A stretch of 64,000 nucleotides of DNA from NCBI GenBank assembly GCA_963674965.2, contig CAXXFL010000006.1, forward strand, positions 800,001 to 864,000, read 5' to 3'. The stretch is from a bacterium. GTDB lineage: Bacteria; RBG-13-61-14; DATKZS01. Below are positions 3,536 to 47,069 of the stretch, piece after piece. How positions within the stretch are numbered: the first letter of the stretch is position 1; each line of letters opens with the position of its first letter. Made by a program: the position numbers and the translations under genes. Below the pieces are notes generated by a model. The model saw nothing but the letters and a program-made list of their open reading frames with translations. It ran no database searches and had not been told where the DNA came from.

Positions 3536-4376
3536 TATTGATTAAAACCATAATGTTTTCTTTGGTTTCCCAAGGGTCTTTCGTGAAAGTACCCCGTACC
3601 TCAACGAGAGCGCCACCGGCGTTGGAGGAACCGTTCATGATTGACACGGATGGAGCGCTTTGGTCCAGAATAACCGGATAGATTGTTTCCGTAACGGGAC
3701 CGGACGAATTGTAGTTCACCGTGAGGACTACCGTATTGGTCCCCGGCGCAATGGTAATTTGCCTTGAGAATGAGCCGATTTCAGGATTCGTTGTATTTCC
3801 GGAAACCGTTAGCGGGTATGATATCCCAGATTCCAGTATCCTAACTTGAGCCGATGAGAAATCCGAATAATTCGGAATGACTCCGTTCAGATAAATAAGT
3901 TCCTGAGGCAATATCTGATTGGGGTGGGGGTCGAGAATCATTCTGCCTGAAGTCCTTGGTTGCCCGTCAATGGCGCCGTCGCCGTCCGTGTCCGTTTTTA
4001 TGGGGTCAGTCCCGTAAAGGTCAACCTCATCGCCGTCCGTAAGTCCGTCACCGTCGGTGTCGGGTGAAAAAGGGTCGCTTCCATGAGATATTTCATCGCC
4101 ATCATTAAGATTGTCGCCGTCCGAGTCGCGGTCGCACGGATTGGTCATGAACAGCAACGTTTCATCGCCATCACTCAGCCCATCACCGTCGGTATCGGGA
4201 TTATACGGACTTGTACCCGTGTCCTCAGCGGATGAATACACCCCGGTATTCGTCTCGACGGAATTGTCCAGACCGTCTCCGTCCAAATCTTGGGCCATGA
4301 CCGGCGCCGCCACAAATAGCATCAAGAAAATTGCCGGGAAAATTGTTTTCACTCTTTTTCTCGCAAAACGAAGCAT
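3536..4376 (-). pseudogene. 5' part of the IS-interrupted secreted protein: signal peptide, Ca-binding DxDGDGLxDG repeats (thrombospondin type 3-like), Ig-like domain
   Basis: N-terminal basic and hydrophobic segment ending APVMA-Q; about five DxDGD repeats; the frame runs into the IS right end. Confidence 0.85.
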
Positions 4377-4736: not shown

Positions 4737-5675
4737 CTATTTCCCAAAGGGCACGGACAACCCCTCCGCCAGTTCCAATGCATCCGCAGGCCAGAACCTC
4801 TCGGGCCGAGGATGGCGCACATTCCGCCGTCCAAACGCGGGGCGGCATTCGAGCAGGGACTCGACCCATTGGGTGGGGAGCGAGTTCCGGCCATGCACCG
4901 CTCCCAACAGCGCGCCACAGATGGCGGCGTTGGTGTCGGTATCTCCGCCTCGCATAACGGTGTCAACGACGGCTTCCTCCAGGTTCGGGGCGTGCAGAAG
5001 CTGCCACAGGGCGTTTCCGAATGCCGTCAGTACCCACCCCTGTTGGTGGATATAGTCGGCGGGCGGCGCGTCGGCCGCTCTTCGGACAGCATCGAGGAGA
5101 CTTACATCCACCTCCATGCCTTCCGACCAGGTCACGATCTGCTCATACAGATTTCGGCCATCGCACCCCGAGTGGATGGCATGGGCAATCGCCATCGTGA
5201 ATAATTCGTTGGCTTGCTGGCAAACGGGATGGGGATGGGTGATCGCGGCATCCTGTCGCGCCCACTCGGCCACATGCTTCAAATCATGGTTGGCTCCGAA
5301 GATGCCGAGCGGACTGATCCGCATCATCGCCCCGTTGGCCTGGCTGTCCGGATTAGGACGACCCCGCAGGCCGCTGGAGACCGTCATGCCGCAATCGAAG
5401 GGCTCGGAGTCCAGCCAGAAGATGTACGCTTTCCTGGCTTCAGCGGGATCGTACTTTCCCCGCTCGGAAAGCATGCGGGCCAGGGAGAGGGCCATCTCGG
5501 AATCATCGGTCGGTTGTCCGGCAATCGTGTCCCAGGCGCCTCCGTCGGCAAGCTCCCTCACTCCGTCGGGGTATTCCCGTCGGATGTCCTCCGGAGTTCG
5601 AAACTCGACCAGGCCGCCCAGCGCGTCTCCGGCAAGCTGTCCAAGGAGACAGCCTTGGGCGCGTTCAACTTGCAT
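4737..5675 (-). CDS. ADP-ribosylglycohydrolase (DraG/ARH family)
   Basis: Motifs GCLLGQLAGDALG, PTDDSEM, NGAMMR, TH, GGDTDTNAAICGALLGA. Confidence 0.93.
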   Translation of the reverse strand: MQVERAQGCLLGQLAGDALGGLVEFRTPEDIRREYPDGVRELADGGAWDTIAGQPTDDSEMALSLARMLSERGKYDPAEARKAYIFWLDSEPFDCGMTVSSGLRGRPNPDSQANGAMMRISPLGIFGANHDLKHVAEWARQDAAITHPHPVCQQANELFTMAIAHAIHSGCDGRNLYEQIVTWSEGMEVDVSLLDAVRRAADAPPADYIHQQGWVLTAFGNALWQLLHAPNLEEAVVDTVMRGGDTDTNAAICGALLGAVHGRNSLPTQWVESLLECRPAFGRRNVRHPRPERFWPADALELAEGLSVPFGK

Positions 5676-6226: not shown

Positions 6227-7366
6227 CTATTCTTTTTTCCCCTTCTTGCCCTTACCTGGTTTCTCCTCTATCATTTTGGCAACTCTCGCCAAAGCCGCGT
6301 CATCCTCCAAGGCTTCCTGTTCCGCCTCTTCAGCGAGACGATGGTGTTCGAACCTTTCATACTGCGAGAGAGCCAACTCCTTTGCTACTTCCATTGAGAC
6401 CTTGCCCGCGTGTTCCAGGATGTCTCGCTCGTTGAACTTGAGGAAGGCATTGAGCTTCTTCCGCCAGTCTCTCATATAAAGAGGTCGGCGGCGGCGGGCC
6501 TGGTCCTCGGCGTAGTCCAGGTACATGACCACAATGCGGTTGAACTCCTCGATCTCGTCGGAGTGGAGGTAATTCTTGGCAATCACCACATCTCCCTTCC
6601 GCACCTTCGCTCCCTTCCACGATGTAAGGCCCATGTTGGGCTCGCCCGAGTCGGCACGGGCCGCTATCAACTCGGCTGCGGTGTGACCGGTCACGGCCCA
6701 GTGGAGCTTGTTCTGGACGATCTTAAAGAATTCCAGAGTCTCCTCCGCGCCGGGGTCATAGTCGCAGGCGAGCTTGTAGATGTCGCGAATCTTCTGGTAG
6801 AAGCGCTTCTCGCTGGCTCGGATATCCCGGATGCGCTCGAGGAGCTCGTCAAAGTAGTCCGCGCCGATATTCCGGCCCTCCTTGAGGCGTTCATCGTCCA
6901 TGACGAAGCCCTTGACGGTTTTTTCAACTGCCTTCGGCAGGGATAATGGTTTGGTAGGAGCCTCTGAATGCGTTTGGCCGACTTCCTGATGAATGATGTT
7001 GGATTGATCTATGAGGTCACGGCTAACACAATTCCAGCCTCGTTTAATGTTCTCGGCCAGCCATTGGTCAGCGATCTTGTCTATCTTCTCCAACGTGGAG
7101 GCTATACGCAGGCTGGTTTTAAGCGGCTCCTTGCGAGCAGCAGAGTAATCGGTGAAGAAGGCGACGTATGGGGGATACAAATCGTCCGCACCATGCTTGT
7201 TGGTTTTCCAGGTAACTACTTTTCGAACGGTTGTCCCGGATTTTCCTTCCTTGGTGTAGACTTCGCGGCGAAGTGCTTCAGCAGGATCAAGTTGCGGTTG
7301 TTTGGTTTCTTCAAGATGGACATCCCTGCCCAAATGATCAGTGATCCTGATCTTGCGCACGCTCAC
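6227..7366 (-). CDS. Chimeric ORF: 15 aa from the second Ku-like gene + about 137 aa from the ligase-AAA gene + C-terminal two-thirds of a RhuM-family protein
   Basis: SVRKIRITDHLGRD matches ORF 14699..15424; VHLEETK...KAVEKTV matches ORF 11616..14702; KGFVMDDERLK...DYFDELLERIRDIRASEKRFYQKI...VQNKLHWA...IAKNYL is the RhuM signature. Expression unknown. Confidence 0.8.
   Translation of the reverse strand: MSVRKIRITDHLGRDVHLEETKQPQLDPAEALRREVYTKEGKSGTTVRKVVTWKTNKHGADDLYPPYVAFFTDYSAARKEPLKTSLRIASTLEKIDKIADQWLAENIKRGWNCVSRDLIDQSNIIHQEVGQTHSEAPTKPLSLPKAVEKTVKGFVMDDERLKEGRNIGADYFDELLERIRDIRASEKRFYQKIRDIYKLACDYDPGAEETLEFFKIVQNKLHWAVTGHTAAELIAARADSGEPNMGLTSWKGAKVRKGDVVIAKNYLHSDEIEEFNRIVVMYLDYAEDQARRRRPLYMRDWRKKLNAFLKFNERDILEHAGKVSMEVAKELALSQYERFEHHRLAEEAEQEALEDDAALARVAKMIEEKPGKGKKGKKE
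6913..7323. repeat. 411-bp direct repeat, copy of 13178..13588
   Basis: No mismatch found by eye between 6913-7323 and 13178-13588. Confidence 0.95.
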
Positions 7367-7568
7367 GAAAAACCTCTCCAGGCTCTAAATCCCATATCAA
7401 AGAAATCCTGAGCGTCATCGTTTTCGTCATTATCGGCGAAGTTGATCAATTGCCCACGCCGAGCATACTCGAATCGACATCGCTCACCCAAGATCAAAAA
7501 AAATCCCTCAACTCCCTTGAGCAGGAATGCGGGATTGTCATGGTATGTTTTGCGCGGTCGGAACGATG
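7321..7568. repeat. 248-bp diverged direct repeat, copy of 15364..15611
   Basis: Ungapped alignment with about 14 mismatches counted by eye (about 94% identity). Confidence 0.93.
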
Positions 7569-9301: not shown

Positions 9302-9918
9302 CCGGCCCTGGTGGTTATATACCGGACGAGGGGATTATCTGTCGGAGAAAATCCGTCTAGGCCGCCCTGGCACAACCGCCAATACACAAGGGGCGAGTAG
9401 AAGCGAATGGATTTATTCAACTTGTATGGAGATTGTACGAAAGAGAACCTGGTTTTGCGTCTGCACGGAACTGTTAACAAACTCGGCATGTTAAACGGAG
9501 AATGGGAGATTCCGCCGGAGAAAAATTCGGTCAACGGGCGAAACCTTAAGGTCGCAAACGTACCCCGAAAATGTGAGTCGCAAACGGAGAATGGCGATAT
9601 GTGTGAGAGGTCCGCAACCTGGCGGAATTGATTGGAAAAGCCGAAAGCCCCAGGACCTGGTGTCCGGAGGCTCTCCGTAAAAGAAAAAAGCCGCTTTGGT
9701 TCGCGGCTGGATATCTGGCTCCGCAAATGAGACCTCCATAAAGCATGCCCTATAAATGCCGTGTGCAATATCTAGCTGATTTAACAATGGAAAAAGGAAG
9801 AAGGTCGTCTATTCAGCAGTGAAATCAACTCAACACTATTTCTCAAGTGGTATGATTATGTGTTCTTTTAGAAGTCAAGTAGAAATTTTGGGCGGGATTT
9901 ACAGGTCGAAAAGATATT

Positions 9919-9950
9919 ACTTGACAAATCTCTGGCAAGTGGTATATTAT
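9919..9950 (+). promoter_or_regulatory. sigma70 promoter with overlapping inverted repeat (probable XRE operator)
   Basis: TTGACA (9921-9926) and TG-G-TATATT (9940-9948); imperfect palindrome ACTTGACA-N6-TGGCAAGT (9919-9940); AAGGAG ribosome-binding site. Confidence 0.65.
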
Positions 9951-9976
9951 AGATATGGTCGGGAAAGGAGATTGCT

Positions 9977-11089
9977 ATGGACTTGCAGATACTCGCTAAA
10001 AACGTGAGACGGCTGAGGACTGCAAAGCGCTTCAGCCAAAAGGCATTGGCTGAAGCAGCGGGGCTATCCCTGCCTGCGGTCAAGAACATGGAACTTGCCA
10101 AAAACGAACCTCGGATGAGAACCATTCAAGCAATCGCCAAGGCGCTTGATGTTAATCTCAGGGAACTCTTTTTGCCGGTAAGGGATTTGCAGACCGTAAG
10201 GTTTCGCTCTACCCGGAAGGTACAGTACCGTGAAAATATCCTGGCAGAGGTGTCCAGATGGCTAGAGGATTTCAATTACCTAGAGGGAACTCTCGGCGAG
10301 AGAATTCCTTTTGAGCTAAAGAAGGTCAGGGTGCGCTGCTCCAATGAGAATATCGTCCGTTCCGCCGAGCTTTGCCGGAAGAAATTGGAACTCTGGGATG
10401 ACGAGCCATTATACGATATCTGCGGATTGCTCGAACATGCAGGTATAAAAGTGCGGTCTGTTCCCATGGCTTCTGATGGTTTTTTCGGATTATCAGTGGG
10501 AGAAAAGGACGGAGGCCCTGCCATAGCAGTAAACGTTTGGGAAAGGATTACCGTTGAGAGGCGGATCTTTAGCGCAGCCCACGAACTCGGTCATCTCATG
10601 CTGCATCCTGACGCCTATGATGTTTCTCAAACTGAGGAAAACAAAAAAGAGGAGCAAGAGGCTGATTTTTTTGCCGGACATTTCATAATGCCGGACAAGG
10701 GATTTCTCAAAGAATGGAATGATGCATCGGGATTGCACTTCGTAGACAGGGTCTTTAAAGTCAAACGAATTTTCCGTGTCAGCTATAAAACCGTTTTGGC
10801 TCGACTCATTGAACACGAAGTCGCGGACAAGTCCATCTGGATGAAATTCAATGTTGCCTATCAGAAACGATTCAATCGAAAACTCGCCTTTAAGGAAGAA
10901 CCAATGGCCATTGACTCCGCTGAGCCATATGGATTACAGCGATTCGATTTTTACGAGGACCGCTTCAGTCGTCTTGTCAGAAAGGCCCTTGAAAAGGACA
11001 AAATTTCTATCAGTCGTGGCGCGGAAATGCTTCACATTGGTATTGAGGAGATGCGGGATCTCCTCGATAATTGGGAGGCTGTTCTTTGA
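9977..11089 (+). CDS. XRE-family HTH fused to ImmA/IrrE Zn metallopeptidase (COG2856-like)
   Basis: N-terminal RRLRTAKRFSQKALAEAAGLS...EPRMRTIQAIAKAL HTH; RRIFSAAHELGH (HEXXH) and EQEADFFAGHF. Confidence 0.92.
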   Translation: MDLQILAKNVRRLRTAKRFSQKALAEAAGLSLPAVKNMELAKNEPRMRTIQAIAKALDVNLRELFLPVRDLQTVRFRSTRKVQYRENILAEVSRWLEDFNYLEGTLGERIPFELKKVRVRCSNENIVRSAELCRKKLELWDDEPLYDICGLLEHAGIKVRSVPMASDGFFGLSVGEKDGGPAIAVNVWERITVERRIFSAAHELGHLMLHPDAYDVSQTEENKKEEQEADFFAGHFIMPDKGFLKEWNDASGLHFVDRVFKVKRIFRVSYKTVLARLIEHEVADKSIWMKFNVAYQKRFNRKLAFKEEPMAIDSAEPYGLQRFDFYEDRFSRLVRKALEKDKISISRGAEMLHIGIEEMRDLLDNWEAVL

Positions 11090-11613
11090 CGAAGCGCCAA
11101 CGAAATCCCCAATTGATGATCATGGATGCTTGTGTCCTCATTGATTTCATCAATGCGGACCGAGCTATTCTTCAACTTGTTGTGAAATACGTGGGACCAC
11201 TCCATGTGGCCAGCCCTGTAGTAGACGAAGTCAACCAGATAGATGACGAAAACGAACTTGTCGAGCTTGGTCTTATTATCATTGAGCCCGAAATCGAGGA
11301 TGCCTTTGCCGCAGCCACTCAACCCGGACCGACATCGTTTCAGGACCGACTATGTCTCCTAGCGGCAAAACGGCATGGCTTCACCTGTGTGACCAACGAT
11401 AAAAACCTTCGAAAACTTTGCAAGCAAGAAGGAGTCCCTCTCCTATGGGGCCTTCAGCTTATAGTCGAGCTTCACAAAGCAGGAGGAATCCCCGGAAAAA
11501 GCGCTGAGATGATCGCTCAGACCATAAGAAAATCTAATCCCAAACATATCACGGCCGAGATAGTATCTCGCTTTACGGAGATTATCCGCCGTCAGGAGAG
11601 TCAACGGTCCTAA
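11086..11613 (+). CDS. PIN-domain protein (DUF3368/VapC-like)
   Basis: IMDACVLID, VVDEV, SFQDRLCL, VTNDKNLRK; TTG start overlapping the upstream stop with a GGAGG site. Confidence 0.85.
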   Translation: MTKRQRNPQLMIMDACVLIDFINADRAILQLVVKYVGPLHVASPVVDEVNQIDDENELVELGLIIIEPEIEDAFAAATQPGPTSFQDRLCLLAAKRHGFTCVTNDKNLRKLCKQEGVPLLWGLQLIVELHKAGGIPGKSAEMIAQTIRKSNPKHITAEIVSRFTEIIRRQESQRS

Positions 11614-11615
11614 CA

Positions 11616-14600
11616 TTAAAGAGCACTTTCTGTTGGCATCCAATCACTGACATGGGATTGAGAGCTTGTTGGCCTCATCTCTTCAATTGCTTTTATTAAA
11701 TGTTTACTTTTAACGGACATGGACTGTTTGAAAGGCCCTTCAATTATGGCCTCCTTTATGCACAGGACACCAGCGCGTCTACAGATGAAAGCGATCTGGG
11801 CTCCGGAGAGACTGGGAGTTATAGTGGCCAGTTGCGTAAAATCAATGTCCTGGGAGATCTTCATGTTTCTGGTGTGATGTTCGAAAAGAGACTTGCGACC
11901 GGACTTATTTGGTAGGTCCATGTTTACGACCCTGTCGAACCTTCCGGGACGACGAAGCGCGGGATCTATGTCGTTGGGCCGGTTGGTTGTAGCGATCACG
12001 AATACTTGCCCTCGGCTTTCAATGCCATCGAGTAGCGTTAGCAATTGGGCAACAAAGGTTCGTTGGCTGGAATCTCCATTTCTGGTTCCGGCGATTCCGT
12101 CAAGTTCGTCGAAGAGAATGATGGATGGCTGAAGCTCACGGGCTCTTTTAAAGACAGCGCGCAACCTTCTCTCGGACTCACCGAACCATTTCGACAGGAG
12201 TTCCGGCCCCGCTACTATTTCGATATGCGCTTTACTCTCGCCAGCCACGGCCCTGGCCAAAAGAGTTTTACCTGTCCCCGGCGGTCCCGCGAGAATGATT
12301 CCTCCACCAGCGCCACTCACGCCCACCTGAGCGAACAGGTCCGCATGCGTTATCGGTAGCTCGACCATGTCTCGCACGGCCTCGACCGCTTCGTCCTGCC
12401 CGCGGACGTCCAAGTAAGATACAGTAGAGATATTTCGGAGTGGCGCAGCATGTGGCTGGCCATGTTCCATCGCGCCTTTTGCATCCGCTACGCCCACACG
12501 CCTCGCATCAGAAAACCCGAAGGGCAGTGGGTGCTTAACCGGCCATAGCCATGCGGGCGATCCGTCTTCCCTGCGATAAATAATTTTCCAGCCCTCGGCC
12601 TCTGCAGTGATAACTTCGGGCAGACAATCTATGTTTTGCGCTACGGCTTTACTATCATAGTTAGGACACAGCCGGTATAGCTCGTTTCTAGAGGCAGAAG
12701 CTTGTCGCTTGAGTTTCCTCTTGTCTATTTTCAGCATTCGGCCATCGAAGTTCCCGACCGTCCACCACAACTGCCGGGATTGGTACGAGTCAAGGGATTG
12801 TTTGACGGGCTTGATAAAGAGTTGATCACATCCCAATCGACAATTGTTAGCGCACGACTCTGAAGCCTCACGGATTTTCTTGCGGCGGCAACGGTCTACC
12901 TCTTCCAGTCGATTAATAAATGCTCCAAAGTCGATTGGCTTGACCGGTTCTCTCGAGATGCAGAACTCTGCGGACTTCCACCCCCGGACCATGCGGGTGA
13001 GGTTAGAGATTCTACGGGCGAGCTCGACCAGGTTACCAGATCCGATGGTAAGAGAGTACCAAACCTCGCGGTCCTTATCGTCCGTCTCGATCATGAGCGC
13101 GCCACTATCGGACAGAGATTTGAGGCGTTTCCTGGCGATGGGGAATGACGGCGAGGCGCTACGGGCGAATGATATGGTGACGGTTTTTTCAACTGCCTTC
13201 GGCAGGGATAATGGTTTGGTAGGAGCCTCTGAATGCGTTTGGCCGACTTCCTGATGAATGATGTTGGATTGATCTATGAGGTCACGGCTAACACAATTCC
13301 AGCCTCGTTTAATGTTCTCGGCCAGCCATTGGTCAGCGATCTTGTCTATCTTCTCCAACGTGGAGGCTATACGCAGGCTGGTTTTAAGCGGCTCCTTGCG
13401 AGCAGCAGAGTAATCGGTGAAGAAGGCGACGTATGGGGGATACAAATCGTCCGCACCATGCTTGTTGGTTTTCCAGGTAACTACTTTTCGAACGGTTGTC
13501 CCGGATTTTCCTTCCTTGGTGTAGACTTCGCGGCGAAGTGCTTCAGCAGGATCAAGTTGCGGTTGTTTGGTTTCTTCAAGATGGACATGGTCCGTCACCT
13601 GTCTCATCCCTGCCTCTGCTACGCTCACGGATTTGTCATGACGCATGCGCAGGAAGACAGCGTTTATCATGCTTATGCTGTTCGTTGGCCCTATGGGGGA
13701 CCAACCATCCTCGGAGTAATCCAACAGCATCCTGCGCACAGGACGGTCCTTGCTGTCAGATTTGATGATATCGTTACATTTTACCTCGACGACGATTTTC
13801 GGGCGTATCCAGCGATAAAGGACTCCCTGGTCGGTGGCCTTTCGGAAACTCGATTGGCAGGACATCTCAGAAAAACGTTCATGAAGGTCCATCTTCTCGA
13901 CTGCACTCATGCCAATAGATACTCTGCCGATCAGCCTAAAGCGATTGTCGTTCAGCACCAGGGCAAGGAGAAGTTCATGGACTCGACCTTGAGATTCAGC
14001 GTATCCGACTACCGCAGCATCGATGGTAATCTCAGGTTTGATCTTTAAAATCCCGCCGTTTTCTAATCGGAGTACGATTCCTTCCGCTCCACCTTGGGTC
14101 ACGGTCTGCTCGAACGCATAATCGACGGCATGGGGCGAATCGGCTGTTTTGAAATCAGCGGTGTGGATTTTGTCGCCGGTGTCGAATATTTCCTGTAACC
14201 TCTCAACCCGTTGAGGAAAGGGCCATGCCTGCGCATCCTTGTCATTATCCTGGATCAGGTCAAATGCGGCAAAACGCAACCGGTCGGTTTTGGCATGCTC
14301 TCCTGTCTTCAAAGCTGACATGATGTCGTAGACATGTGACCTGCCTGATTTGCTAGTTGTATAAAGCTCTCCAGCAACAAGCATTCTTTGATCACCCAAG
14401 CTCTCGGCAACTTCCTGAGTAATCGGGATGCCGGTAATCGCCCTGCCCGACGGCGACAGCAGGTGGACCTCTCCATCCCACGCATACAGGAACCAGCACT
14501 CGCCGTCTATCTTAGGTGACAGAATATGGCTGCCGGGCGGAATGGTCTGCAAGATGTTGTCCGGTGATACGCTCCGATAGCTGGAGGCCACGTTACGTTT

Positions 14601-14702
14601 GTACGCGGCCAATCGGGCTGCAAGAACAGTGTTCTCTATGGAGCCCTGAGGAGCAATGCGCCCTTGCCCAAATGGCTTCCAGCGGGACTGATCGACTATC
14701 AT
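11616..14702 (-). CDS. ATP-dependent DNA ligase fused to a C-terminal CDC48/VCP-like AAA+ ATPase
   Basis: Ligase motifs I SPKIDGE, III VAGELY, IIIa FAAFDL, IV EGIVLR, V LKIKP, OB fold and VI RMRHDK; AAA: YLDVRG, VELP, Walker A GPPGTGKT, pore loop SKWFGESE, Walker B IILFDELD, SRH TNRPNDIDPALRRPGRFD. Confidence 0.9.
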   Translation of the reverse strand: MIVDQSRWKPFGQGRIAPQGSIENTVLAARLAAYKRNVASSYRSVSPDNILQTIPPGSHILSPKIDGECWFLYAWDGEVHLLSPSGRAITGIPITQEVAESLGDQRMLVAGELYTTSKSGRSHVYDIMSALKTGEHAKTDRLRFAAFDLIQDNDKDAQAWPFPQRVERLQEIFDTGDKIHTADFKTADSPHAVDYAFEQTVTQGGAEGIVLRLENGGILKIKPEITIDAAVVGYAESQGRVHELLLALVLNDNRFRLIGRVSIGMSAVEKMDLHERFSEMSCQSSFRKATDQGVLYRWIRPKIVVEVKCNDIIKSDSKDRPVRRMLLDYSEDGWSPIGPTNSISMINAVFLRMRHDKSVSVAEAGMRQVTDHVHLEETKQPQLDPAEALRREVYTKEGKSGTTVRKVVTWKTNKHGADDLYPPYVAFFTDYSAARKEPLKTSLRIASTLEKIDKIADQWLAENIKRGWNCVSRDLIDQSNIIHQEVGQTHSEAPTKPLSLPKAVEKTVTISFARSASPSFPIARKRLKSLSDSGALMIETDDKDREVWYSLTIGSGNLVELARRISNLTRMVRGWKSAEFCISREPVKPIDFGAFINRLEEVDRCRRKKIREASESCANNCRLGCDQLFIKPVKQSLDSYQSRQLWWTVGNFDGRMLKIDKRKLKRQASASRNELYRLCPNYDSKAVAQNIDCLPEVITAEAEGWKIIYRREDGSPAWLWPVKHPLPFGFSDARRVGVADAKGAMEHGQPHAAPLRNISTVSYLDVRGQDEAVEAVRDMVELPITHADLFAQVGVSGAGGGIILAGPPGTGKTLLARAVAGESKAHIEIVAGPELLSKWFGESERRLRAVFKRARELQPSIILFDELDGIAGTRNGDSSQRTFVAQLLTLLDGIESRGQVFVIATTNRPNDIDPALRRPGRFDRVVNMDLPNKSGRKSLFEHHTRNMKISQDIDFTQLATITPSLSGAQIAFICRRAGVLCIKEAIIEGPFKQSMSVKSKHLIKAIEEMRPTSSQSHVSDWMPTESAL

Positions 14703-15424
14703 AAAGCGATCTCCAGCGGGCGACGCAACTCAAAAGCTGCGAGATGCAAAACCAGCAGGTAGCTGTCGCTCTCTGTCCTGCCCTCGAGCAATCCCAGCAT
14801 GGGAGCGCCGTTTCGCTCAAGGATCAGAGGGCCCAGGCTGTCAGGTCCGGAGCCGATAATAGCCAGGCTATCTCGCTCTTCAAGGTAACCGGCAAGCGAA
14901 AATAAGAAGTCGAAGGTAAGGGCGTCAACGTGCCTGACCATGTACTTCCGCGTGAATGCAAAACGCCGGGCCGTAACATTACGAGGTAATAGCTTCCCGG
15001 ACCAGGGCCGAGGGTCGAGGAGGTTCGAGTGATAGGGCTTCGGTTCCCGTCGTTCACATTCCGAGCCATCAGGACCATAAACGACCTCCATGATTTTTGC
15101 CGCGTACAATGGCTCGCCTTGGCCATTCACGAATACCCTCCTGCACTGACCAGTCTCCTTGCCCACCGCCTCCATGTCTATTTCCGGGTCGCCCTCGATC
15201 AATGCATTGGCAAGAGCCTGTCCATCACCGAAACGATCAATCAAGGCTTCATGGTTGTTGGTCGTGCTGCTCTTCACAAGGCGGACATGGCGAATGGTCG
15301 ATCCGCTCATACTCTTGTACGTGATGTTTTTACCAAGACGACATGCTTCCAGCGCCACTACCGCATCCCTGCCCAGATGGTCTGTGATCCTGATCTTGCG
15401 CACGCTCACGAAAAACCTCTCCAC
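14699..15424 (-). CDS. Putative divergent Ku-like DNA-end-binding protein (B)
   Basis: LLPRNVTARRFAFTRKYMV...FDFLFSLAGYLEERDSLAIIG...LLEGRTESDSYLLVLHL parallels the Ku core order (FVP..I.PIYF.KSYYL...Y.LL..AL...VAIG...LRP..GLVLHTL); ATGA overlap with the ligase. The CDS is secure; the family call is tentative. Confidence 0.55.
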   Translation of the reverse strand: MERFFVSVRKIRITDHLGRDAVVALEACRLGKNITYKSMSGSTIRHVRLVKSSTTNNHEALIDRFGDGQALANALIEGDPEIDMEAVGKETGQCRRVFVNGQGEPLYAAKIMEVVYGPDGSECERREPKPYHSNLLDPRPWSGKLLPRNVTARRFAFTRKYMVRHVDALTFDFLFSLAGYLEERDSLAIIGSGPDSLGPLILERNGAPMLGLLEGRTESDSYLLVLHLAAFELRRPLEIAL

Positions 15425-16089
15425 GTTCTAAATCCCATATCAAAGAAATCCTGAGCGTCATCGTTTTCGTCATTATCGGCGAAGTTGATCATCTGCCCAC
15501 GCCGAGCATACTCGAATCGACATCGCTCACCTACGATCAGGAAAAATCCCTCAACTCCCTTGAGCAGGAATGCGGGATTGTCATAGTATGTTTTGCGCGG
15601 CCTGAACGATGTCCGATAAATTTCGCCAGCTTCGAGTGAGTCCTGCAATCCCGAGTCCAGCGTTTTCGCTTCCAGTAGATAAACCGCCGTGACGACATGC
15701 TCCAAAATCTCACTGTCCGGAACCGGGCCTGATATTTTCTGTGGCGCCCCGGGGGTGGCTGGAAATTCAGCTAATGAGTTTCCCACTTCATCACAAGCAA
15801 TGATTTCCTTCCGCTCGACATGGTCCCCTTCCTCATCCAGGTACATTTCCGCTGTACAGCCGTTGGGCATAAGGTGGAGGCCGTCATCGGTGAGCAATAC
15901 GGTGGAGCACTCTCTATCTTCATGGTCCAGAGCTATCCTCCGTTTATAGCCATGGAAACTTATTGGGTCGATTTTACGCACGATGAATTGCGAAAGCCTG
16001 CCATGAAAGAGGAGATCCAGAGTAGTGGGCTTTCCCGATCCCTTTTTCAAGCCATTACATTCCGAGATTTTTCTATTCATATGGCTCAT
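15406..16089 (-). CDS. Putative divergent Ku-like DNA-end-binding protein (A)
   Basis: YLDEEGDHVERKEII parallels Ku ring arm (GEEV..EDIVKG); QKISGPVPDSEILEHVVTAVYLL parallels I.EFVP..EI...YF...YYL; ends in a beta hairpin AFLLKGVEGFFLIVG and an acidic tail. The CDS is secure; the family call is tentative. Confidence 0.55.
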   Translation of the reverse strand: MSHMNRKISECNGLKKGSGKPTTLDLLFHGRLSQFIVRKIDPISFHGYKRRIALDHEDRECSTVLLTDDGLHLMPNGCTAEMYLDEEGDHVERKEIIACDEVGNSLAEFPATPGAPQKISGPVPDSEILEHVVTAVYLLEAKTLDSGLQDSLEAGEIYRTSFRPRKTYYDNPAFLLKGVEGFFLIVGERCRFEYARRGQMINFADNDENDDAQDFFDMGFRTWRGFS

Positions 16090-16158
16090 CAGCGGTCACC
16101 TTTTATTCGACCATGCCCATTGCCATGTACCTGAAGGAGAAAATTCGCATGTAAGCCA

Positions 16159-16578
16159 TCAAGTCCCGCATGAAGACTTCAGCAATTCCCACTGTCTCAG
16201 CTGTTGGGTCCAGTCCTCGGCCTGGATAATGTCACGCAACCTTCGTTCGCTAATGGCATCTTTTTTTCTGGTCGATTCCATGAATAAAATCTCCTCCTGG
16301 ATTTGCGGGGCCAATAGGAGCAGGTTCAGTATCTGGGTAAGACGGGCCCGTGTGAGACCGTGCCGCCGAGCCAGGCCAGCCCGGTTGCCGCATCCGCCAT
16401 GGTCAAGCTCCTTTTGCAGATGATGAGCCTGCGCCAGCAATACCGCAAGGGGAATCGGCTTCAAAGTGGGGGGTTCAGGTTTAACTGGAGGCTCGGCAGA
16501 CAATATAGTCTCCCGTCCCCGGCGGGCGCGAAAAATATAAGCGGTCATCGTTTTAATGGGTTGTTCGGATTCGATCAT
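16159..16578 (-). CDS. Accessory HTH protein of DUF2924/serine-recombinase modules
   Basis: LAQAH...G...AGLARRHGLTRARLTQILNLLLLAPQIQEEIL, typical of the gene that follows these recombinases. Confidence 0.75.
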   Translation of the reverse strand: MIESEQPIKTMTAYIFRARRGRETILSAEPPVKPEPPTLKPIPLAVLLAQAHHLQKELDHGGCGNRAGLARRHGLTRARLTQILNLLLLAPQIQEEILFMESTRKKDAISERRLRDIIQAEDWTQQLRQWELLKSSCGT

Positions 16579-16602
16579 GGTATCCTCCAGCGCGTCTTTT
16601 TG

Positions 16603-18114
16603 TTAACATAAGGATGGCCCTGCGACCGAGTAATCGACAATTTTCATTTCCACCTTGCCACAAGGCTCGTCGATGATGATTTCACTTACAATTGCGCGCA
16701 GTAGTCGGCGCTTATTTTCAGATGTCAAGGCATCCCACACCGAGTCAAAGCGTCTCATAACACCAATCATCCACTCGACCTCTTCATTTTGCTTGTTCAG
16801 AGCAGCGATGTCCCGTTCCACTTGGCAAAGATTGTGGTCCATCTTCCCCAGTTCATCGTACAAGCAGCCGAGCTTGGCATCGAGATTTTTCCAATCATCC
16901 CCCTTTGCCTGCTCCATATTTTTAGCGATCTCGTGCCCTTTTGCCGCAAGTTCGCCGATCATCTTTGGCAGTCGTTGACGTTCCATGTTCCTTTCCTGAA
17001 GCCTGGCCGCATAATTCCGTCTAACGGATGACAATAAATCGTCAGGATTGTCGATCTCGGACGCGGCGTCCTTTACCCGATCAACCACATATTTCTCGAG
17101 TGATTCCGCGGGCAGTGGCCGTGCGGGGCAGGCGTCCCGGCCCTGTTTATCGCGGGTAAGGCAACGGTAATAGCGCCGCTTGTTTTTTCCTCGTTTGGCT
17201 GAGGCTGGAGTATAAGCGGCCCCGCAGGCAGCGCAACGCGTCAGTCCCTGCAGAAGATATTCATCTGTAGAAACCTGGCGGGTTCGGGTATTGTCACGAA
17301 TAAGTTTCTGAACGGTATGGAACTTTTCTCTGTCCACTATTAGGGCATGCTCGCCTTCATAGAGGTTGTTTCCGTAAGATATGTAGCCCGCATAAAGCGG
17401 ATTTTTCAGCATGCGCAGAACCGTGTGCTTGTTCCATTTGCGGTTACTGTCTATCTTTTCCAAATTGTCAGAGAGGCTTTGGAAAACCGCAAGCGGGGAT
17501 CGGCAATCGATATAGAGATCGAACACCCGCCGTACTACATCCGCCTCCGGTTCATTGACAATCAATTTTTTGTCCACAATCCTGAAGCCGAAGGGAACCT
17601 GCCCGCCGGTCCATTTCCCTTTTTTCCTGGCCGCTCCTATCTTGTCCCGAGTTCGCTCCGAGATAATCTCACGCTCGAATTCGGCGAAGCTCATCAGCAT
17701 GTTGAGGGTCAACCGGCCCATAGCGTCGGCGGTGGAGAAGTTCTGGGTCACGCTCACAAATGCAACATGGCGGCGGTTCAATTGATCTATAATTTTTGCG
17801 AAGTCCAAAAGCGACCTGGAGAGACGGTCAACCTTGTAAGTTACTATCACGTCGATTCCCCCGGCTTCCACGTCACCCATCAGCCGCTGAAACGAGGGAC
17901 GGTCAAGATTTGATCCGGTAAAGCCGCCGTCATCGTAGGTCGGAGAGATCGCTCGCCAGCCCAGTTGCGCCCGGTCGCGAATGTAATCCAAGCAAGCATC
18001 TTTCTGAGCGTCCAGTGAATTGAATTCCTGCTCCAGGCCCGCGGACGTCGATTTGCGGGTATAGATCGCGCAGCGGACGTCAGTTCCCTGGGAACGTTTG
18101 CTTACATTGTTCAT
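16603..18114 (-). CDS. Large serine recombinase (resolvase + recombinase + Zn-ribbon + coiled coil)
   Basis: RCAIYTRKST, YDDGGFTG...RP, KVDRLSRS, FAEFEREIISERT, NPLYAG, LLQGLTRCAACG, YYRC; likely start at the ATGA overlap at 18114. Confidence 0.95.
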   Translation of the reverse strand: MNNVSKRSQGTDVRCAIYTRKSTSAGLEQEFNSLDAQKDACLDYIRDRAQLGWRAISPTYDDGGFTGSNLDRPSFQRLMGDVEAGGIDVIVTYKVDRLSRSLLDFAKIIDQLNRRHVAFVSVTQNFSTADAMGRLTLNMLMSFAEFEREIISERTRDKIGAARKKGKWTGGQVPFGFRIVDKKLIVNEPEADVVRRVFDLYIDCRSPLAVFQSLSDNLEKIDSNRKWNKHTVLRMLKNPLYAGYISYGNNLYEGEHALIVDREKFHTVQKLIRDNTRTRQVSTDEYLLQGLTRCAACGAAYTPASAKRGKNKRRYYRCLTRDKQGRDACPARPLPAESLEKYVVDRVKDAASEIDNPDDLLSSVRRNYAARLQERNMERQRLPKMIGELAAKGHEIAKNMEQAKGDDWKNLDAKLGCLYDELGKMDHNLCQVERDIAALNKQNEEVEWMIGVMRRFDSVWDALTSENKRRLLRAIVSEIIIDEPCGKVEMKIVDYSVAGPSLC

Positions 18115-18635
18115 TGTTGACTTTCCTTTTTCCGGCGGTTTGCGCAGTGGAAAAACAGAAAGCCATTCCACTGGATGCCGGTGATCTCCCGCGCCACCTT
18201 TGAAAGGGTTCGATAATGCTTCCCCTTATACCCGAAACCGTCATCCAAGACTTGCACTTCGTAAACCTTGTCTTTATAGATTCGACGAAGGATACTGCCC
18301 GGTGGAGGTAAGCGAGCATCGCGTGGCCGGAATGTTTTTCCTGGTGAGCTCTTTGACCTCTTCTGTACGACCGGAAACGGCTCAGTCGCCAGTTCTTCAA
18401 TTCTTAGCTTGGCTTTTTCCGAAAGGCCCCGGATGGAAAGCTCCTGTATCCGGAAAGCCAGTCGCTTGCGAAGATAGGTTTTGTGGCTGCTGCGGGCCGG
18501 AAAACCGAATAGTTCGCTGAACCGCTCCTGTAGCTCACGGACGCTCATGTCGTTGAGCCTGGCCAAATCCGCCGCCAAGCTGAGTATCTGACGGTCAGGG
18601 GTGATTGTTTTATGGTCGCCTTTAATTTTTTGCAT
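18111..18635 (-). CDS. DUF2924 domain protein
   Basis: LRKRLAFRIQE, PGSILRRIYK, GFGYKGKHYRTLSKVAREITGIQWNGFLFF. Confidence 0.9.
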   Translation of the reverse strand: MQKIKGDHKTITPDRQILSLAADLARLNDMSVRELQERFSELFGFPARSSHKTYLRKRLAFRIQELSIRGLSEKAKLRIEELATEPFPVVQKRSKSSPGKTFRPRDARLPPPGSILRRIYKDKVYEVQVLDDGFGYKGKHYRTLSKVAREITGIQWNGFLFFHCANRRKKESQQ

Positions 18636-18671
18636 CCGTTTTCTCCTTTGGCATGTTAACCGCTGGACACA

Positions 18672-18701
18672 ATGAACGCTCTTAACTCCAGTTAAGTCAA
18701 G
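18672..18701 (-). promoter_or_regulatory. Putative promoter/operator of the DUF2924 module
   Basis: Minus strand CTTGACTTAACTGGAGTTAAGAGCGTTCAT: TTGACT-like -35 with a perfect 7-bp inverted repeat CTTAACT-N2-AGTTAAG (18681-18696). Confidence 0.45.
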
Positions 18702-19100
18702 TTAATTCTCAAGCTGCGGGAAGTTTTTGAGGTGTGCTGTGTGGTAGTAGAGCAAGGGGACTCTGCCGACCCGTTTCTGCTTTGATAACAGGGTAGCTGG
18801 TTCGGCCAGGACAACCATCCTAAATCAGGATTCAAAAGTTCCATTTATATCCTCATCGGAGCCTCGGGTTCGGGAAAAAAGCCAAATCAATCGTCAGTAA
18901 AATGAGGCTCCTGAAGAATATATACCGGAAAAAAAGTGAAAGTGTCGGAAAAAGTTAAAAAATTTAGAAAATCTCTAGATCTTTGATCAACTATCATGCG
19001 AAGGTTTTTCTTTTCGGTGGGGCATGATCTGTTCTCATTATGGCAGGTTTGCGCATCGATTCATGTTACAAACACACGCGGGTCATTAAGTTATGCGCAA

Positions 19101-19985
19101 TTACACTGAAATCGTCTCTTTCTCTATGATTTCCCTGAATTCACTCAATAATTCTGGATAGTTCTTAAACAAATATTTCTTAACCTTGGAGTTGTCTAGT
19201 ATACGCTTTAAATACTTGCGGTATATGGCGACTTTAAGTGTGTTCTCGGCCAGCGAGTCGTCAAGCAGGCGATACTTTCGCTCCAATGTTTCCAGCTCTT
19301 TGCGCAACTTTGCCATATCAGCCAGTGTGGTCTCTTTCCCTTTTATTGGTTTGCCTGAATCAACCATTAGTTCCGGCGCAGTGGCCAAGACCTGTGCCTC
19401 CACGTACTTTGCGCTGAAATAGTTCAGCCGAACCAGCGTCTCAGCAATCTCTATCTGCCTAATGGGCTTGACTTTTTTTAATAGCTTGAGAGTCTTTACG
19501 GCAACCTGTTTATCTTTCAGCATATCCACCGCTTCCGGGCAGATGCCGTTCACTATATCCCTGCGCTCGCGAATCCTTTTTACGTCGACATTGAGAGTTC
19601 GGGCGAGTTCTTCCTCTGACAAGCCCTTGCTTAGAGCTTCCACGATCATCCTGTGCTCCTGGATGATGGCAAGGCGGTTGATGTAATAATTATAGCTGAA
19701 GTACTCCTCATCCTTCGCGACCAGGCACTTGGCTTCAGTCCAGCCAAGATCAGAAATCGCCTTATATCTAAGATGCCCGTCCAGAAGACAATAAAAGCCC
19801 TTGCGGCCTTTCTCGGGAAAGACCACGAGTGGCTCGACCAAGCCAACTTCTTTTATGGAGGCAAGAATGCTGTTGTATTTGTTGGAATGACTTGTCGAAA
19901 ACTTGATTGATTTGACGGGAAGTATTCTGTCCAAGGGAAGGACGACCATTTCGCCATTAAAAGCCCATTTGATTTTCTTGCTCAT
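19101..19985 (-). CDS. ParB-like protein with RepB C-terminal domain
   Basis: ILASIKEVGLVEPLVV, LLDGHLR, QEHRMI, GICPEAV, KPIRQIEIAE. Confidence 0.88.
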   Translation of the reverse strand: MSKKIKWAFNGEMVVLPLDRILPVKSIKFSTSHSNKYNSILASIKEVGLVEPLVVFPEKGRKGFYCLLDGHLRYKAISDLGWTEAKCLVAKDEEYFSYNYYINRLAIIQEHRMIVEALSKGLSEEELARTLNVDVKRIRERRDIVNGICPEAVDMLKDKQVAVKTLKLLKKVKPIRQIEIAETLVRLNYFSAKYVEAQVLATAPELMVDSGKPIKGKETTLADMAKLRKELETLERKYRLLDDSLAENTLKVAIYRKYLKRILDNSKVKKYLFKNYPELLSEFREIIEKETISV

Positions 19986-20875
19986 CGCCCGTCAACCCTG
20001 AGGGCTCCATCCGATAGTATGCGCGGCATGTCCTGCAAACCTTCGGCACGCAATAGATTGATAAAATTTTCATCGCCAAGCAGTCGCCGAAAAGCGGCCT
20101 CGATTATCGAGCGGCGGTAGTCAGCCAGTTCAGACTTCTTCACCTGCAGCTTCTGGATTTCGGCCTGCTTTTGATACTCCCTTAGCAGACCAGTTTTGCC
20201 GCCCCCTTTACCGTGAGGATGCTTATGCTTGGTTTTTCCCATCAGCATGCGCTTCTCCGCTATACGCCGCGTCATCCTCAGTTCCTTGCCTTTCAACTCA
20301 CCGTTCTCATAAGCTTCGGTTAGCCAACTCTGCAACTGTGAGTCGTCCAGTTTCATTATTTCCAAAGCAGCGCTGATAGGTATGCGCCCGGAAGCGACCG
20401 CCTCTACCAAACGCTCTTCTCCCTCCTCCAACAACTTCAATATGCTTCTAATATAATTTTCAGTCAACCCAGTTTTATTGGCGATCTCAAGATAACTGTA
20501 TCCGCGGTCCTTCTGCAACAGAAGATTTCCGATCAATTCATAATAACTGCTATGACGACGCGCCAGGTTCTCCACCAGGCTCATCTGCAGACTCCGTTTC
20601 TTGGAAGCATCGATCACGATCGCGGGAATTTCCTTTTCGCCAAGCTCGACAAATGCCTCCAGACGCCCCTGCCCGCACACCAGATCAAATCCCGATTCCT
20701 CGGTTTCACCGGGTTTTCTGCGGCTCACTATTATCGGCCTCTTGATGCCGATCTGGGGCATGCTGCGGACGATCCGGTGGAACTTATTTTTATCCCGAAC
20801 GCGAGGATTGATAACCCGGATCTGTTCGATGGGAATAACCGCGATTGTAAGATCTTCCTGCTTCTTTTTAGCCAT
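19982..20875 (-). CDS. ParB/RepB/Spo0J-family protein
   Basis: NPRVR, GIKRPIIV, LVCGQGRLEAF, MSLVENLARR, HTH, FINLLRAEGL. Confidence 0.9.
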   Translation of the reverse strand: MAKKKQEDLTIAVIPIEQIRVINPRVRDKNKFHRIVRSMPQIGIKRPIIVSRRKPGETEESGFDLVCGQGRLEAFVELGEKEIPAIVIDASKKRSLQMSLVENLARRHSSYYELIGNLLLQKDRGYSYLEIANKTGLTENYIRSILKLLEEGEERLVEAVASGRIPISAALEIMKLDDSQLQSWLTEAYENGELKGKELRMTRRIAEKRMLMGKTKHKHPHGKGGGKTGLLREYQKQAEIQKLQVKKSELADYRRSIIEAAFRRLLGDENFINLLRAEGLQDMPRILSDGALRVDGR

Positions 20876-20877
20876 GA

Positions 20878-22437
20878 TTAAGCCACATCCTCCAGCATCA
20901 CGCGCTCGGCAAGATTGAAGAAATAATTGAGATTGTCAAAACGATACGCGTCCAAGTTAAAGCTGTTCTCTTCAGCCAGGCGAAGTTTACTAGCTGTCAG
21001 GTCGAGAGATGGGAACAGATAATAATCCCTAATTTGCTCATTGCCCTCTTCCATTCTGACCGCAATGGTTATGTCGGGCCTGAGACCCTCTTCAAATCGC
21101 AGCAGCCAGCGAAGGGCCCCGGCTCCTGTCTGCCGACAGCGAGCCAGGGTTAAGGAAACCAGAAGCTCTCGATTGATCAACAGCAGATCCGATTGCTCGT
21201 CAGTCTCCACTTCCGCGCCATGTTCTTCCAATTGATTGATCACCTCAGCGATCGTTTGCGGATACATCTCCCTCAACCGACGATTGACTTCGATGTAACT
21301 GTAATCGATATCCGGGACGTAACCTATCAGCCGGTAAGCCCGCAACAGGCTGCCGAAGCGATGCTGATACGCTGAAGCCGTGGGCAGTGTTTCAGCCTCA
21401 TCAATCAAAATCCCCGAAAGCCTTCCGTTTTTGAGGTAGACATTTTTCAGCTTTTCCAACATCTCATCATCGCTCAACCTCCGACTGCGAGCCAGGATTA
21501 TGCCCCGAGCAGTAAAGAAAGTCTGCGCTTCAATGATCGGCTCAAAGGCCCCATCCTTGCGAATCCATTCCTCAGGCGGATTTTTCACCCTTGCTATTTT
21601 CAGCTTGTACGACTGACGGTTATAAACGTTGTTGCCAATGTACTTTTCATTGGTCAGAATCTGCCGTATGGGACCCCGCTTCCAGGGGCGCTGATGATCG
21701 TTTAATATTTTTCGGTCATTGAAAATAGCGGCTATCTCACCTTCATTCTTGCCTTCATGAACAAAAAGCCGAAACATCTCTCGGACATTTGCCACTTCTT
21801 CGGAAGGGCCGGGAGTCAGAATCACCCGGTCAGTCTGGAGGCTTTTGTGCTCGCCCATCTTCAACTCGCCCTTCACCTGTCCGCTGCTGTCCACCAACAC
21901 TCGACGCAGGCCGTAACCAGCCGTGCCACCCTGGCGAAATCCCAGCTTCACCAGGTTCGACGCGCCATGGAAAACCTTGCCAGACAACTCCCGGCTATAC
22001 TCCGCGGCCATGGAGCGCTTTACTCCTTTGACGATTGTTGAAATGGGGCTGCCGTCGTTTTCAAATAGCTCCGCGCAATATTTGATCTTGACCCCAGCTC
22101 TTTTGCAGACGTATTCATAATGAGCGCTCTCATCCGCATCCTGAAATCTGCCCCAGCGGGAAACGTCATATACCAGTATCTCCTCAAATGCTGCCTGCCC
22201 GCTTTCGACATCGCGCAGAAGCTTCGCGAGAGAATCTCGGCCTTCAATATTCAGACCGCTCTTACCTTCATCAGAATAGATCTCTATAATCTCGTAATTG
22301 TGGTGCTCGGCATACTGTCTGATGATCTCAAGCTGGTTGTCTGCGCTGTATTGCTGATGTTCGGTGGACATGCGCACATAAGCGGCAGCGGGAATGGACT
22401 TGTCGCGTGGCGGCTGTCCTGTTCGGCCGTTTGTCAT
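20878..22437 (-). CDS. Serine recombinase of the recombinase-ParB-ParB trio
   Basis: AAYVRMSTEHQQYS, YSDEGKSG, VYDVSRWGRFQD, AEYSRELS, NEKYIG. Confidence 0.95.
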   Translation of the reverse strand: MTNGRTGQPPRDKSIPAAAYVRMSTEHQQYSADNQLEIIRQYAEHHNYEIIEIYSDEGKSGLNIEGRDSLAKLLRDVESGQAAFEEILVYDVSRWGRFQDADESAHYEYVCKRAGVKIKYCAELFENDGSPISTIVKGVKRSMAAEYSRELSGKVFHGASNLVKLGFRQGGTAGYGLRRVLVDSSGQVKGELKMGEHKSLQTDRVILTPGPSEEVANVREMFRLFVHEGKNEGEIAAIFNDRKILNDHQRPWKRGPIRQILTNEKYIGNNVYNRQSYKLKIARVKNPPEEWIRKDGAFEPIIEAQTFFTARGIILARSRRLSDDEMLEKLKNVYLKNGRLSGILIDEAETLPTASAYQHRFGSLLRAYRLIGYVPDIDYSYIEVNRRLREMYPQTIAEVINQLEEHGAEVETDEQSDLLLINRELLVSLTLARCRQTGAGALRWLLRFEEGLRPDITIAVRMEEGNEQIRDYYLFPSLDLTASKLRLAEENSFNLDAYRFDNLNYFFNLAERVMLEDVA

Positions 22438-22802
22438 TATTTACCTCTCTGAGAAATGTTAATAGAGCTTGTATTTGTTCTCGGCAGAACAGCTTAAGGT
22501 TGGGATGAGCCTGCAAATCTTAAGCGGGTCGCTTTCTGGAACTTCACGCGACCCCGAAATGAGAGTACTGCTCTAAAATAACAACTACACTTGTTAACCA
22601 AAGGCATTTGCTCTCTGTACGGAGAATCTAAACAGAGAGCAACCGTTTACAAAAAACAGGAGGATTGACTTTTGCCAATCCTCTCTAACTATCCTTGGTT
22701 CTTTCCCTTCACTTTTTTTATTAGCAATATTAGCAATCTATAACTTGACCCCAAAGGGGTTTCACTTGTTAACCTCAAACTAAATAGAGCGTGCTATTTA
22801 GT

Positions 22803-46716: not shown

Positions 46717-46744
46717 GAAACTATTTTCATTTATTTTTATTATA

Positions 46745-47068: not shown

Positions 47069-47069
47069 G

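Follow-up and report, generated by a model that had tools for sequence, protein, structure and literature searches.

The bacterial form of non-homologous end joining (NHEJ), as described in Mycobacterium tuberculosis and Bacillus subtilis, relies on a Ku homodimer together with the ATP-dependent ligase LigD. In eukaryotes the corresponding subunits are the two paralogous Ku-fold proteins Ku70 and Ku80, and one review describes how ligation leaves Ku rings sterically trapped and how the Cdc48-type AAA protein p97 (VCP/Cdc48) extracts them, with Ku80 as its target (PMC5577460). According to a single-molecule study, B. subtilis Ku persists for hours on the DNA after ligation, and its authors call the bacterial removal mechanism "as-yet-unidentified" (PMC7969030). 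The locus described here lies in a 64,000-nucleotide window of a bacterial genome assembly (contig CAXXFL010000006.1, positions 800,001 to 864,000, read on the forward strand; "the window" below) and consists of three genes, up2, up1 and a gene for an ATP-dependent DNA ligase fused to a Cdc48-type AAA module (ligase-AAA; Table 1). As in bacterial NHEJ, genes with a predicted Ku fold stand next to a LigD-type ATP-dependent ligase in a compact operon. Unlike bacterial NHEJ, the trio has two diverged putative Ku paralogues, neither of which matches PF02735, in place of one Ku, and its ligase has no polymerase or phosphoesterase part, carrying instead a domain that we call mid1 and, at this locus, a second domain (mid2) and the AAA module. 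With the eukaryotic pathway (PMC5577460) the trio shares two paralogous subunits of predicted Ku fold and a Cdc48-type AAA, but it lacks a ubiquitin system and Ufd1-Npl4, has one AAA ring where p97 has D1 and D2, joins the motor covalently to the ligase, and shows no Cdc48 N-domain detectable by sequence. By analogy, a functional parallel to p97-dependent Ku extraction may be drawn. The reading we favor, at a probability of roughly 0.4, is that the trio is a divergent, horizontally mobile set of end-joining genes in which the ligase brings a segregase of its own, probably one that pulls off a trapped Ku-like ring in the manner of p97. Neither the cassette nor the ligase-AAA fusion was found described in the open-access papers and bioRxiv preprints covered.

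The ligase-AAA protein and its Ku-like partners

The ligase-AAA gene is a single uninterrupted open reading frame (ORF) of 1028 codons on the minus strand (11616..14702), with an ATG start and zero internal stops. It is the last gene of a translationally coupled trio in the order up2-up1-ligase, in which up2 and up1 share 19 nucleotides and the end of up1 runs 4 nucleotides (ATGA) into the start of the ligase gene. The original prediction, made from the DNA letters, had described a ligase, two intervening domains and one CDC48/PAN-type AAA module, and had pointed to the Walker A and B motifs, a KWFGE pore loop, an RRPGRFD arginine-finger region and the lack of LigD polymerase and phosphoesterase motifs. 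Each of these statements holds. Pfam places DNA_ligase_A_M at residues 43-214 (E 5.7e-12) and DNA_ligase_A_C at residues 238-357 (E 2.3e-10), both ligase domains (PF01068/PF04679) exceeding their cut-offs, followed by AAA at residues 802-929 (E 1.2e-41) and AAA_lid_3 at residues 952-986 (E 3.9e-7). The motifs GPPGTGKT, ILFDELD, SKWFGES and RRPGRFD are all in the translation, and the 10 Pfam families matched at E ≤ 0.01 include neither a polymerase nor a phosphoesterase family of LigD. The top NCBIfam ligase model is NHEJ_ligase_lig, the LigD ligase domain (1.4e-22, under its cut-off), and the LigD models as a group, all under cut-off, cover only residues ~59-316. For the C-terminal part the CDC48 and PAN models rank first in NCBIfam, far under their curated cut-offs: TIGR01243 (Cdc48) scores 257.4 bits against a cut-off of 802.65, the protein having one AAA domain and not the tandem D1 and D2, and the PAN and Mpa models reach 165-238 bits where their cut-offs stand at 500-750. 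The solved chains nearest to the AAA part are those of VAT/Cdc48/p97 (E ~5e-122), well ahead of PAN (2e-62).

The same layout recurs widely among homologues. Of the 120 best database matches, 119 are at least 950 residues long, align at 42-60% identity over ~95-100% of the query and have the same precomputed Pfam architecture, and none of the 120 carries a name beyond a generic one such as 'AAA family ATPase'. Ligase motifs I, III, IIIa, IV and V and OB motif VI are present, and in an alignment of 26 sequences motifs I-VI are invariant: K64, D66 and G67 of motif I, E112, F144/F147/D148, E207, K220/K222 and R354/D356/K357. Equally invariant in that alignment are the Walker A lysine (K812), the Walker B pair (D865/E866), N907 and the arginine fingers (R918/R921) of the AAA part. 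Across the 119 full-length homologues, K.DGE is found in all 119, strict Walker A and strict Walker B are each found in 110, and an aromatic-hydrophobic-Gly pore loop, as SKW[VFLA]G or [NS]PYVG, is found in 118. An HbYX-type C terminus is present in 0 of the 119, so no protease partner is implied, and a proteasome-coupled role was rejected on this ground. The PADLOC model for IetA matches only the AAA core (residues 773-1006), and within the cassette, to which this search applied, there is no protease gene that could be an IetS-like partner. In PLSDB plasmids, the ligase part matches only ordinary LigD-like proteins (2 records, 25-27% identity).

The two genes upstream of the ligase have no recognized family: up1 and up2 match nothing in Pfam (E ≤ 0.01), NCBIfam, PADLOC or PHROG at the thresholds used, and by sequence they give 0 matches to PF02735 and no Ku among solved chains in profile searches at E ≤ 10. 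AlphaFold2 models were obtained with a mean predicted local distance difference test score (pLDDT) of 83.2 for up1 (44-sequence alignment) and 82.6 for up2 (38 sequences). When searched against the PDB with Foldseek, the up1 model gave 51 matches at E ≤ 1e-3 and the up2 model 19, the best for both being M. tuberculosis Ku (3.4e-6 and 9.5e-5, respectively), and all of the matches listed for the two models are Ku, from M. tuberculosis and B. subtilis and as human and yeast Ku70/80. VIA-align, an aligner independent of Foldseek, was applied to the full set of 48,161 representative chains and likewise ranked Ku first for up1 and up2, with bacterial Ku aligned over 163-172 residues as compared to ~100-110 for the next-ranked SPOC barrels. 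Both proteins are predicted from these models to have the Ku core fold, a β-barrel with an extended arm. The up2 and up1 families show a weak relationship to each other in hhalign (probability 15.6%). Because the two genes are co-conserved (up2 precedes up1 in 68 of 80 loci), we infer that their products pair, and they would then form a heterodimeric ring on DNA ends.

Relatives of up2 have a disordered acidic tail that ends in a conserved D-[LM]-D-F-x-M-hydrophobic motif, a tip that resembles the protein-recruiting tip of SSB; the tail may dock the ligase. Canonical Ku (PF02735) was not detected at E ≤ 0.01 in this genome, which is 97.6% complete, in a search that did detect the B. subtilis positive control.

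A larger AAA-less family and the origin of the AAA module

All 123 database relatives of up1 are unnamed or 'hypothetical'. A scan of species genomes, one per species, with a 13-sequence subset of the up1 alignment returned at least 565 encoding stretches, of which 80 loci, from Myxococcota, Planctomycetota, Bacillota, Bacteroidota, Actinomycetota and other phyla, were used for the counts that follow, by tblastn. In the first three true loci examined, relatives of up1 and up2 precede relatives of the ligase. Among the 80, the ligase domain follows up1 in 75 and mid1 follows the ligase in 72, whereas mid2 is found in 2 and an AAA part adjoining the ligase also in 2 (L087 and L107), so that the two intervening domains of the fusion are separable. 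Another AAA-like match, in L130 and L155, lies upstream and is unrelated to the cassette. The usual ligase partner is ~450-570 residues long and consists of ligase plus mid1; AAA-less cassettes thus share the three gene families and their order with the trio of the window and differ in lacking the AAA extension. On these counts the AAA-bearing ligase represents a minor offshoot of a far larger family without AAA. A separate locus scan with the full-length ligase-AAA alignment returned 80 loci that were generic AAA, only L003 being a true relative, and enters none of the counts.

Clustering of all ORFs in the 80 up1 loci yielded no further conserved neighbor of the trio. When 103 of the 228 proteins flanking AAA-less cassettes were scanned with Pfam, the families identified were mostly housekeeping enzymes, and a minority of flanks held restriction, toxin-antitoxin, helicase or MoxR/VWA genes. 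In 3 of the 80 loci, MoxR-type AAA/VWA genes stand no more than about three genes away from an AAA-less cassette, assigned by Pfam in L118 and by BLAST clustering only in L158 and L166; in L118, the MoxR-type AAA gene and a gene for DUF2201, a VWA-like metallopeptidase, lie just upstream. A gene of ~1150 codons also adjoins the AAA-less cassette in Actinomycetota loci, directly after the ligase in L117 and L118 and upstream of up1 in L158. Pfam finds RNase_H_2 and SF1-helicase domains in the L117 protein, and the proteins of L118 and L158 were grouped with it by BLAST cluster.

Neither mid1 nor mid2 matches a Pfam family or, by sequence, a solved chain, and residues 369-756 of 16 homologues gave no Pfam family at E ≤ 1 beyond scattered weak matches; by sequence, neither a Cdc48-type N-domain (double-psi barrel) nor a WGR family was detected there. 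In the ESM Atlas, mid1 falls in unnamed clusters only. The four conserved cysteines of mid2 (C605, C617, C625 and C679) are possibly a zinc site. A mid2 profile searched against 1.84 billion representatives matched 461 at E ≤ 1e-3, 115 at E ≤ 1e-10 and 23 at E ≤ 1e-30. Among the proteins recovered are free-standing ones of ~510-560 residues in which mid2 is followed by one classical AAA and a lid (a layout seen in 12 of 12 scanned with Pfam), which resemble the C-terminal half of ligase-AAA and differ in having no ligase. Others are a 766-residue protein of the Bacillus cereus group with mid2 and two AAA parts, named only 'AAA family ATPase', proteins of 200-300 residues with mid2 alone, and one in which mid2 is joined to VRR_NUC. 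Locus scans with the free-standing proteins P0254 and P0399 gave no matches, nor did the mid2 alignment when used on viral sequences; against PLSDB, P0399 matched only generic Cdc48 AAA parts. PADLOC models (IetA, TRIP13) match the AAA core only and never mid2. As a free-standing mid2-AAA family exists, the fusion joined two working modules, and on this comparison of sequences the cassette ligase captured a pre-existing module made of the mid2 N-domain and a Cdc48-type AAA.

A maximum-likelihood tree of ligase plus mid1 was built with 95 rows, 60 AAA-less and 35 AAA-bearing, from which ligase ORFs below 440 or above 1200 residues, AAA-type ORFs below 980 residues and three duplicate loci were left out. 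All 35 AAA-bearing rows fall on one side of a branch with a Shimodaira-Hasegawa-like approximate likelihood ratio (SH-aLRT) support of 99, and there are deep branches within them. The most economical reading of this tree is a single origin of the AAA capture.

The mobile element and its surroundings

The trio is cargo of a 12.8-kb mobile element (Table 1). From the right, the element contains a serine recombinase, the two ParB/RepB genes, DUF2924, a serine recombinase, the small partner, up2, up1 and ligase-AAA, with the PIN-like and helix-turn-helix (HTH)/M78 genes on the strand opposite to the cassette. These last two are probably the element's regulatory or addiction pair, which was not seen in 26 metagenome loci with AAA-type cassettes. 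A second copy of the element, on contig C2 (L086), is 92-97% identical in nucleotide sequence over 9702-22457, with sharp ends and unrelated flanks; in it ~1.66 kb of additional sequence separates the PIN-like gene from the stop of ligase-AAA, and the serine-recombinase/DUF2924 region differs. Of the 13 species genomes covered for the phylum, this one alone has up1 and it alone has mid2, and on that distribution the element is taken to have been acquired horizontally.

Table 1. Features of the ligase-AAA protein, its cassette, the mobile element and the neighboring remnant (positions in the window)
Feature	Position	Strand	Basis
up2, 227 residues, predicted Ku fold, disordered acidic C-terminal tail; cassette gene 1	15406..16089	-	predicted structure
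up1, 241 residues, predicted Ku fold; cassette gene 2	14699..15424	-	predicted structure
ligase-AAA residues 1-360: ATP-dependent DNA ligase (nucleotidyltransferase and OB domain)	13623..14702	-	Pfam, alignment
mid1, residues 369-509: post-ligase domain of both AAA-less and AAA-bearing forms	13176..13598	-	tblastn on loci
mid2, residues 510-755: N-domain of AAA module, four conserved Cys	12438..13175	-	mid2 profile search, alignment
residues 756-1028: one classical-clade AAA module and lid, Cdc48/VAT-like	11616..12437	-	Pfam, PDB search
12.8-kb mobile element carrying the cassette	9702..22457	.	second copy with sharp ends, Pfam, PADLOC
HTH and M78 (ImmA/IrrE-like) gene	9977-11089	+	Pfam; PADLOC RmrA models E 2e-31
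weak PIN-like gene, overlapping HTH/M78, convergent with ligase-AAA	11071-11613	+	
small partner gene directly upstream of the cassette	16159-16578	-	tblastn, Pfam
large serine recombinase of the module directly upstream of the cassette	16603-18171	-	Pfam; phrog_14161 'recombinase'
DUF2924	18111-18635	-	Pfam
two ParB/RepB genes	19101-20875	-	Pfam, PADLOC
second serine recombinase, right end of element	20878-22437	-	Pfam, PADLOC
remnant of third cassette copy, in which a 1.78-kb deletion links the up1 start to mid1	6913..7568	-	nucleotide comparison, Logan

The 26 AAA-type loci come from a metagenome scan with the mid2 alignment, with gene counts made by tblastn. Nineteen of them have at least 1.5 kb upstream of the ligase, three pairs among these being near-identical, and up1 is present in 18 of the 19 and up2 in 17; the exception for the Ku-like genes is L176, in which the ligase is truncated. 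Of the 26 loci, 8 have a large serine recombinase and, in a separate count, 8 have the small partner, and the same genes occur in 0 and 1, respectively, of the 80 up1 loci. DUF2924 stands beside the serine recombinase in five sources (confirmed for a representative), and in one homologue, P0056, a DUF2924 domain is part of the same protein as ligase-AAA. A pair of Amidoligase_2 and GATase_6 genes lies next to the DUF2924/serine-recombinase module in L173, L182 and L187, and a LexA-like repressor lies near it in L176 and L178. Two contigs each carry two ligase-AAA genes, and five paralogues of 75-93% identity appear to share one 3.3-Mb contig.

To the left of the element, the remnant of a third cassette copy is fused in frame to a RhuM-family ORF (6227-7366, minus strand, 379 residues), which consists of the first residues of up1, ligase residues ~372-509 and the C-terminal part of RhuM (Pfam 56-249 of 252). 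Positions 6913-7323 are 100% identical in nucleotide sequence to 13178-13588, and the deletion joint 13585->15364, which lies at a short TDH-coding repeat, is also found in Logan contigs of two sequencing runs, X1 and X2. Further left, on the minus strand, lie genes for a bacterial TSP3-repeat protein (3525-4376) and for an ADP-ribosylglycohydrolase (4737-5675). On the other side, just outside the element, is an ORF of 7101 codons (21.3 kb; 24495-45800, minus strand), and the G+C fraction drops to 0.365 at 46001-48000, with flanks of 0.47-0.63, which may mark another foreign insert.

What the AAA motor may act on

In the reading we favor, the two Ku-like proteins, on the strength of their predicted fold and pairing, would form a ring on DNA ends. 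The ligase, recruited possibly via mid1 and/or the acidic tail of up2, would then seal the break, as its motifs suggest, and the AAA part, with its pore loops and arginine fingers, would assemble as a hexamer and thread protein through its pore. The likeliest substrate would be the Ku-like ring topologically trapped on the sealed DNA, such that sealing and ring extraction would be combined in one enzyme. Since the cassette is cargo of a serine-recombinase element, it most likely serves the element or the host after DNA breakage. The original prediction had also suggested that the ligase may strip proteins from DNA ends, and the predicted Ku fold of up1 and up2 gives that idea a candidate substrate, the stripping itself staying conjectural; it was right about the fusion and missed the three-gene cassette, the larger AAA-less family and the mobile-element cargo. 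The MoxR/VWA genes near AAA-less cassettes lend weak support to removal of Ku by a motor. A bolder form, in which a single polypeptide seals the break and its own Cdc48-type ring unloads a heterodimeric Ku-like clamp without ubiquitin, as a prokaryotic counterpart, or forerunner, of p97-dependent Ku removal, is put forward tentatively, and we hold it to be somewhat doubtful.

Several observations weigh against Ku extraction. Because 78 of the 80 up1 cassettes have no AAA, there is no general need for a fused motor to do the extracting, and in tails and degrons the Ku-like proteins of the AAA-type cassettes were not seen to differ consistently from those of the AAA-less ones. Since mid2 is also present by itself and joined to a VRR-NUC nuclease, it may be directed at something other than Ku, and the frequent position of AAA-type cassettes beside serine-recombinase modules provides another candidate substrate.

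That candidate leads to the alternative that survives best, which we nevertheless judge unlikely: the motor may act on a DNA-bound protein other than Ku, such as the element's own large serine recombinase when stalled or in an unproductive synapse, or the end-blocker of a competing element, clearing the end for the Ku-like ring and the ligase. The enrichment of the recombinase in AAA-type loci (8 of 26, with the small partner separately in 8 of 26, as compared to no recombinase in the 80 up1 loci), the DUF2924 genes beside it in five sources and the DUF2924 domain within P0056 all fit such a role, as does the portability of mid2 as an N-domain that is also joined to a nuclease. However, 18 of the 26 AAA-type loci lack a recombinase in the DNA fetched, whereas the Ku-like genes are nearly always there, and an unfoldase alone would be unable to break a covalent phosphoserine-DNA link, for which the cassette has no phosphodiesterase.

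It is more improbable, in our estimate, that the AAA part serves mainly oligomerization or regulation, the hexamer clustering six ligase heads, bridging ends in synapsis or gating the ligase by ATP, all without unfolding. Classical AAA modules form hexamers, and a six-headed hexamer had been proposed in the original prediction; in addition, no adaptor, tag or protease partner is evident, the HbYX tail being absent from all 119 homologues. Against this, the substrate-gripping pore loop is kept in 118 of 119 homologues and the arginine fingers and Walker B glutamate are invariant in the 26 aligned sequences, a degree of conservation that is not expected of a mere scaffold.

Still less do we expect the trio to be a system of anti-phage or anti-plasmid defense, or the element's counter-defense, that, for example, binds and seals the ends of an invader or mends restriction or CRISPR cuts in the element. 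Its patchy, horizontal distribution (up1 and mid2 each in 1 of 13 genomes of the phylum), its place as mobile-element cargo in this genome, the five paralogues (75-93% identity) that appear to share one genome, the type I restriction, ParE, LexA-like or amidoligase genes beside some loci, and the resemblance of the AAA core to PADLOC IetA are features that would suit defense. On the other side stand the mostly housekeeping neighbors of AAA-less cassettes among the 103 proteins scanned with Pfam, the failure of any PADLOC model to match the Ku-like proteins, the ligase or mid2, and the absence from the cassette of a nuclease or other toxic effector.

A second intact ligase-AAA copy in the same genome is identical at 989 of 1028 residues, with all 39 differences in residues 1-509. 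Between the two copies mid2 and AAA (510-1028) are identical, which points to recent gene conversion or to a 3' half of mosaic origin. In Logan contigs from X1 and X2, which are probably runs of the source sample and so not independent evidence, all 30 depth bins of 11500-15500 are covered, and a contig of 3160 bp matches 11500-13175 without a difference; across 13178-15244 the contigs are fragmented, which coincides with the repeated copies, and no one contig spans the whole ORF. Among the sequencing runs listed for the locus, none is of RNA. An assembly chimera or a decaying pseudogene, for which these broken contigs and the rearranged remnant close by might speak, has a negligible chance of being the explanation given the 119 full-length homologues of identical architecture from many sources, the second intact copy, the lack of internal stops, the fall of the contig breaks at repeats and the coverage of 30 of 30 depth bins. 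A recent non-functional joining is excluded as well: as judged from the tree and the conserved catalytic motifs, the fusion forms a branch that is old and has diversified, far from anything that chance or faulty assembly would give.

The removal of Ku from repaired DNA in bacteria is an acknowledged gap (PMC7969030), and if the bolder form of the reading favored here is true, ligase-AAA would be the first identified bacterial Ku-unloading activity. A fusion of a ligase with a Cdc48-type motor that nearly always stands behind two genes of predicted Ku fold forms a compact three-protein system that is testable in vitro. Beyond the AAA-bearing branch, the trio would extend an apparently undescribed end-joining family that Pfam-based surveys of Ku would miss, and it would mean that mobile elements carry end-joining kits of their own.

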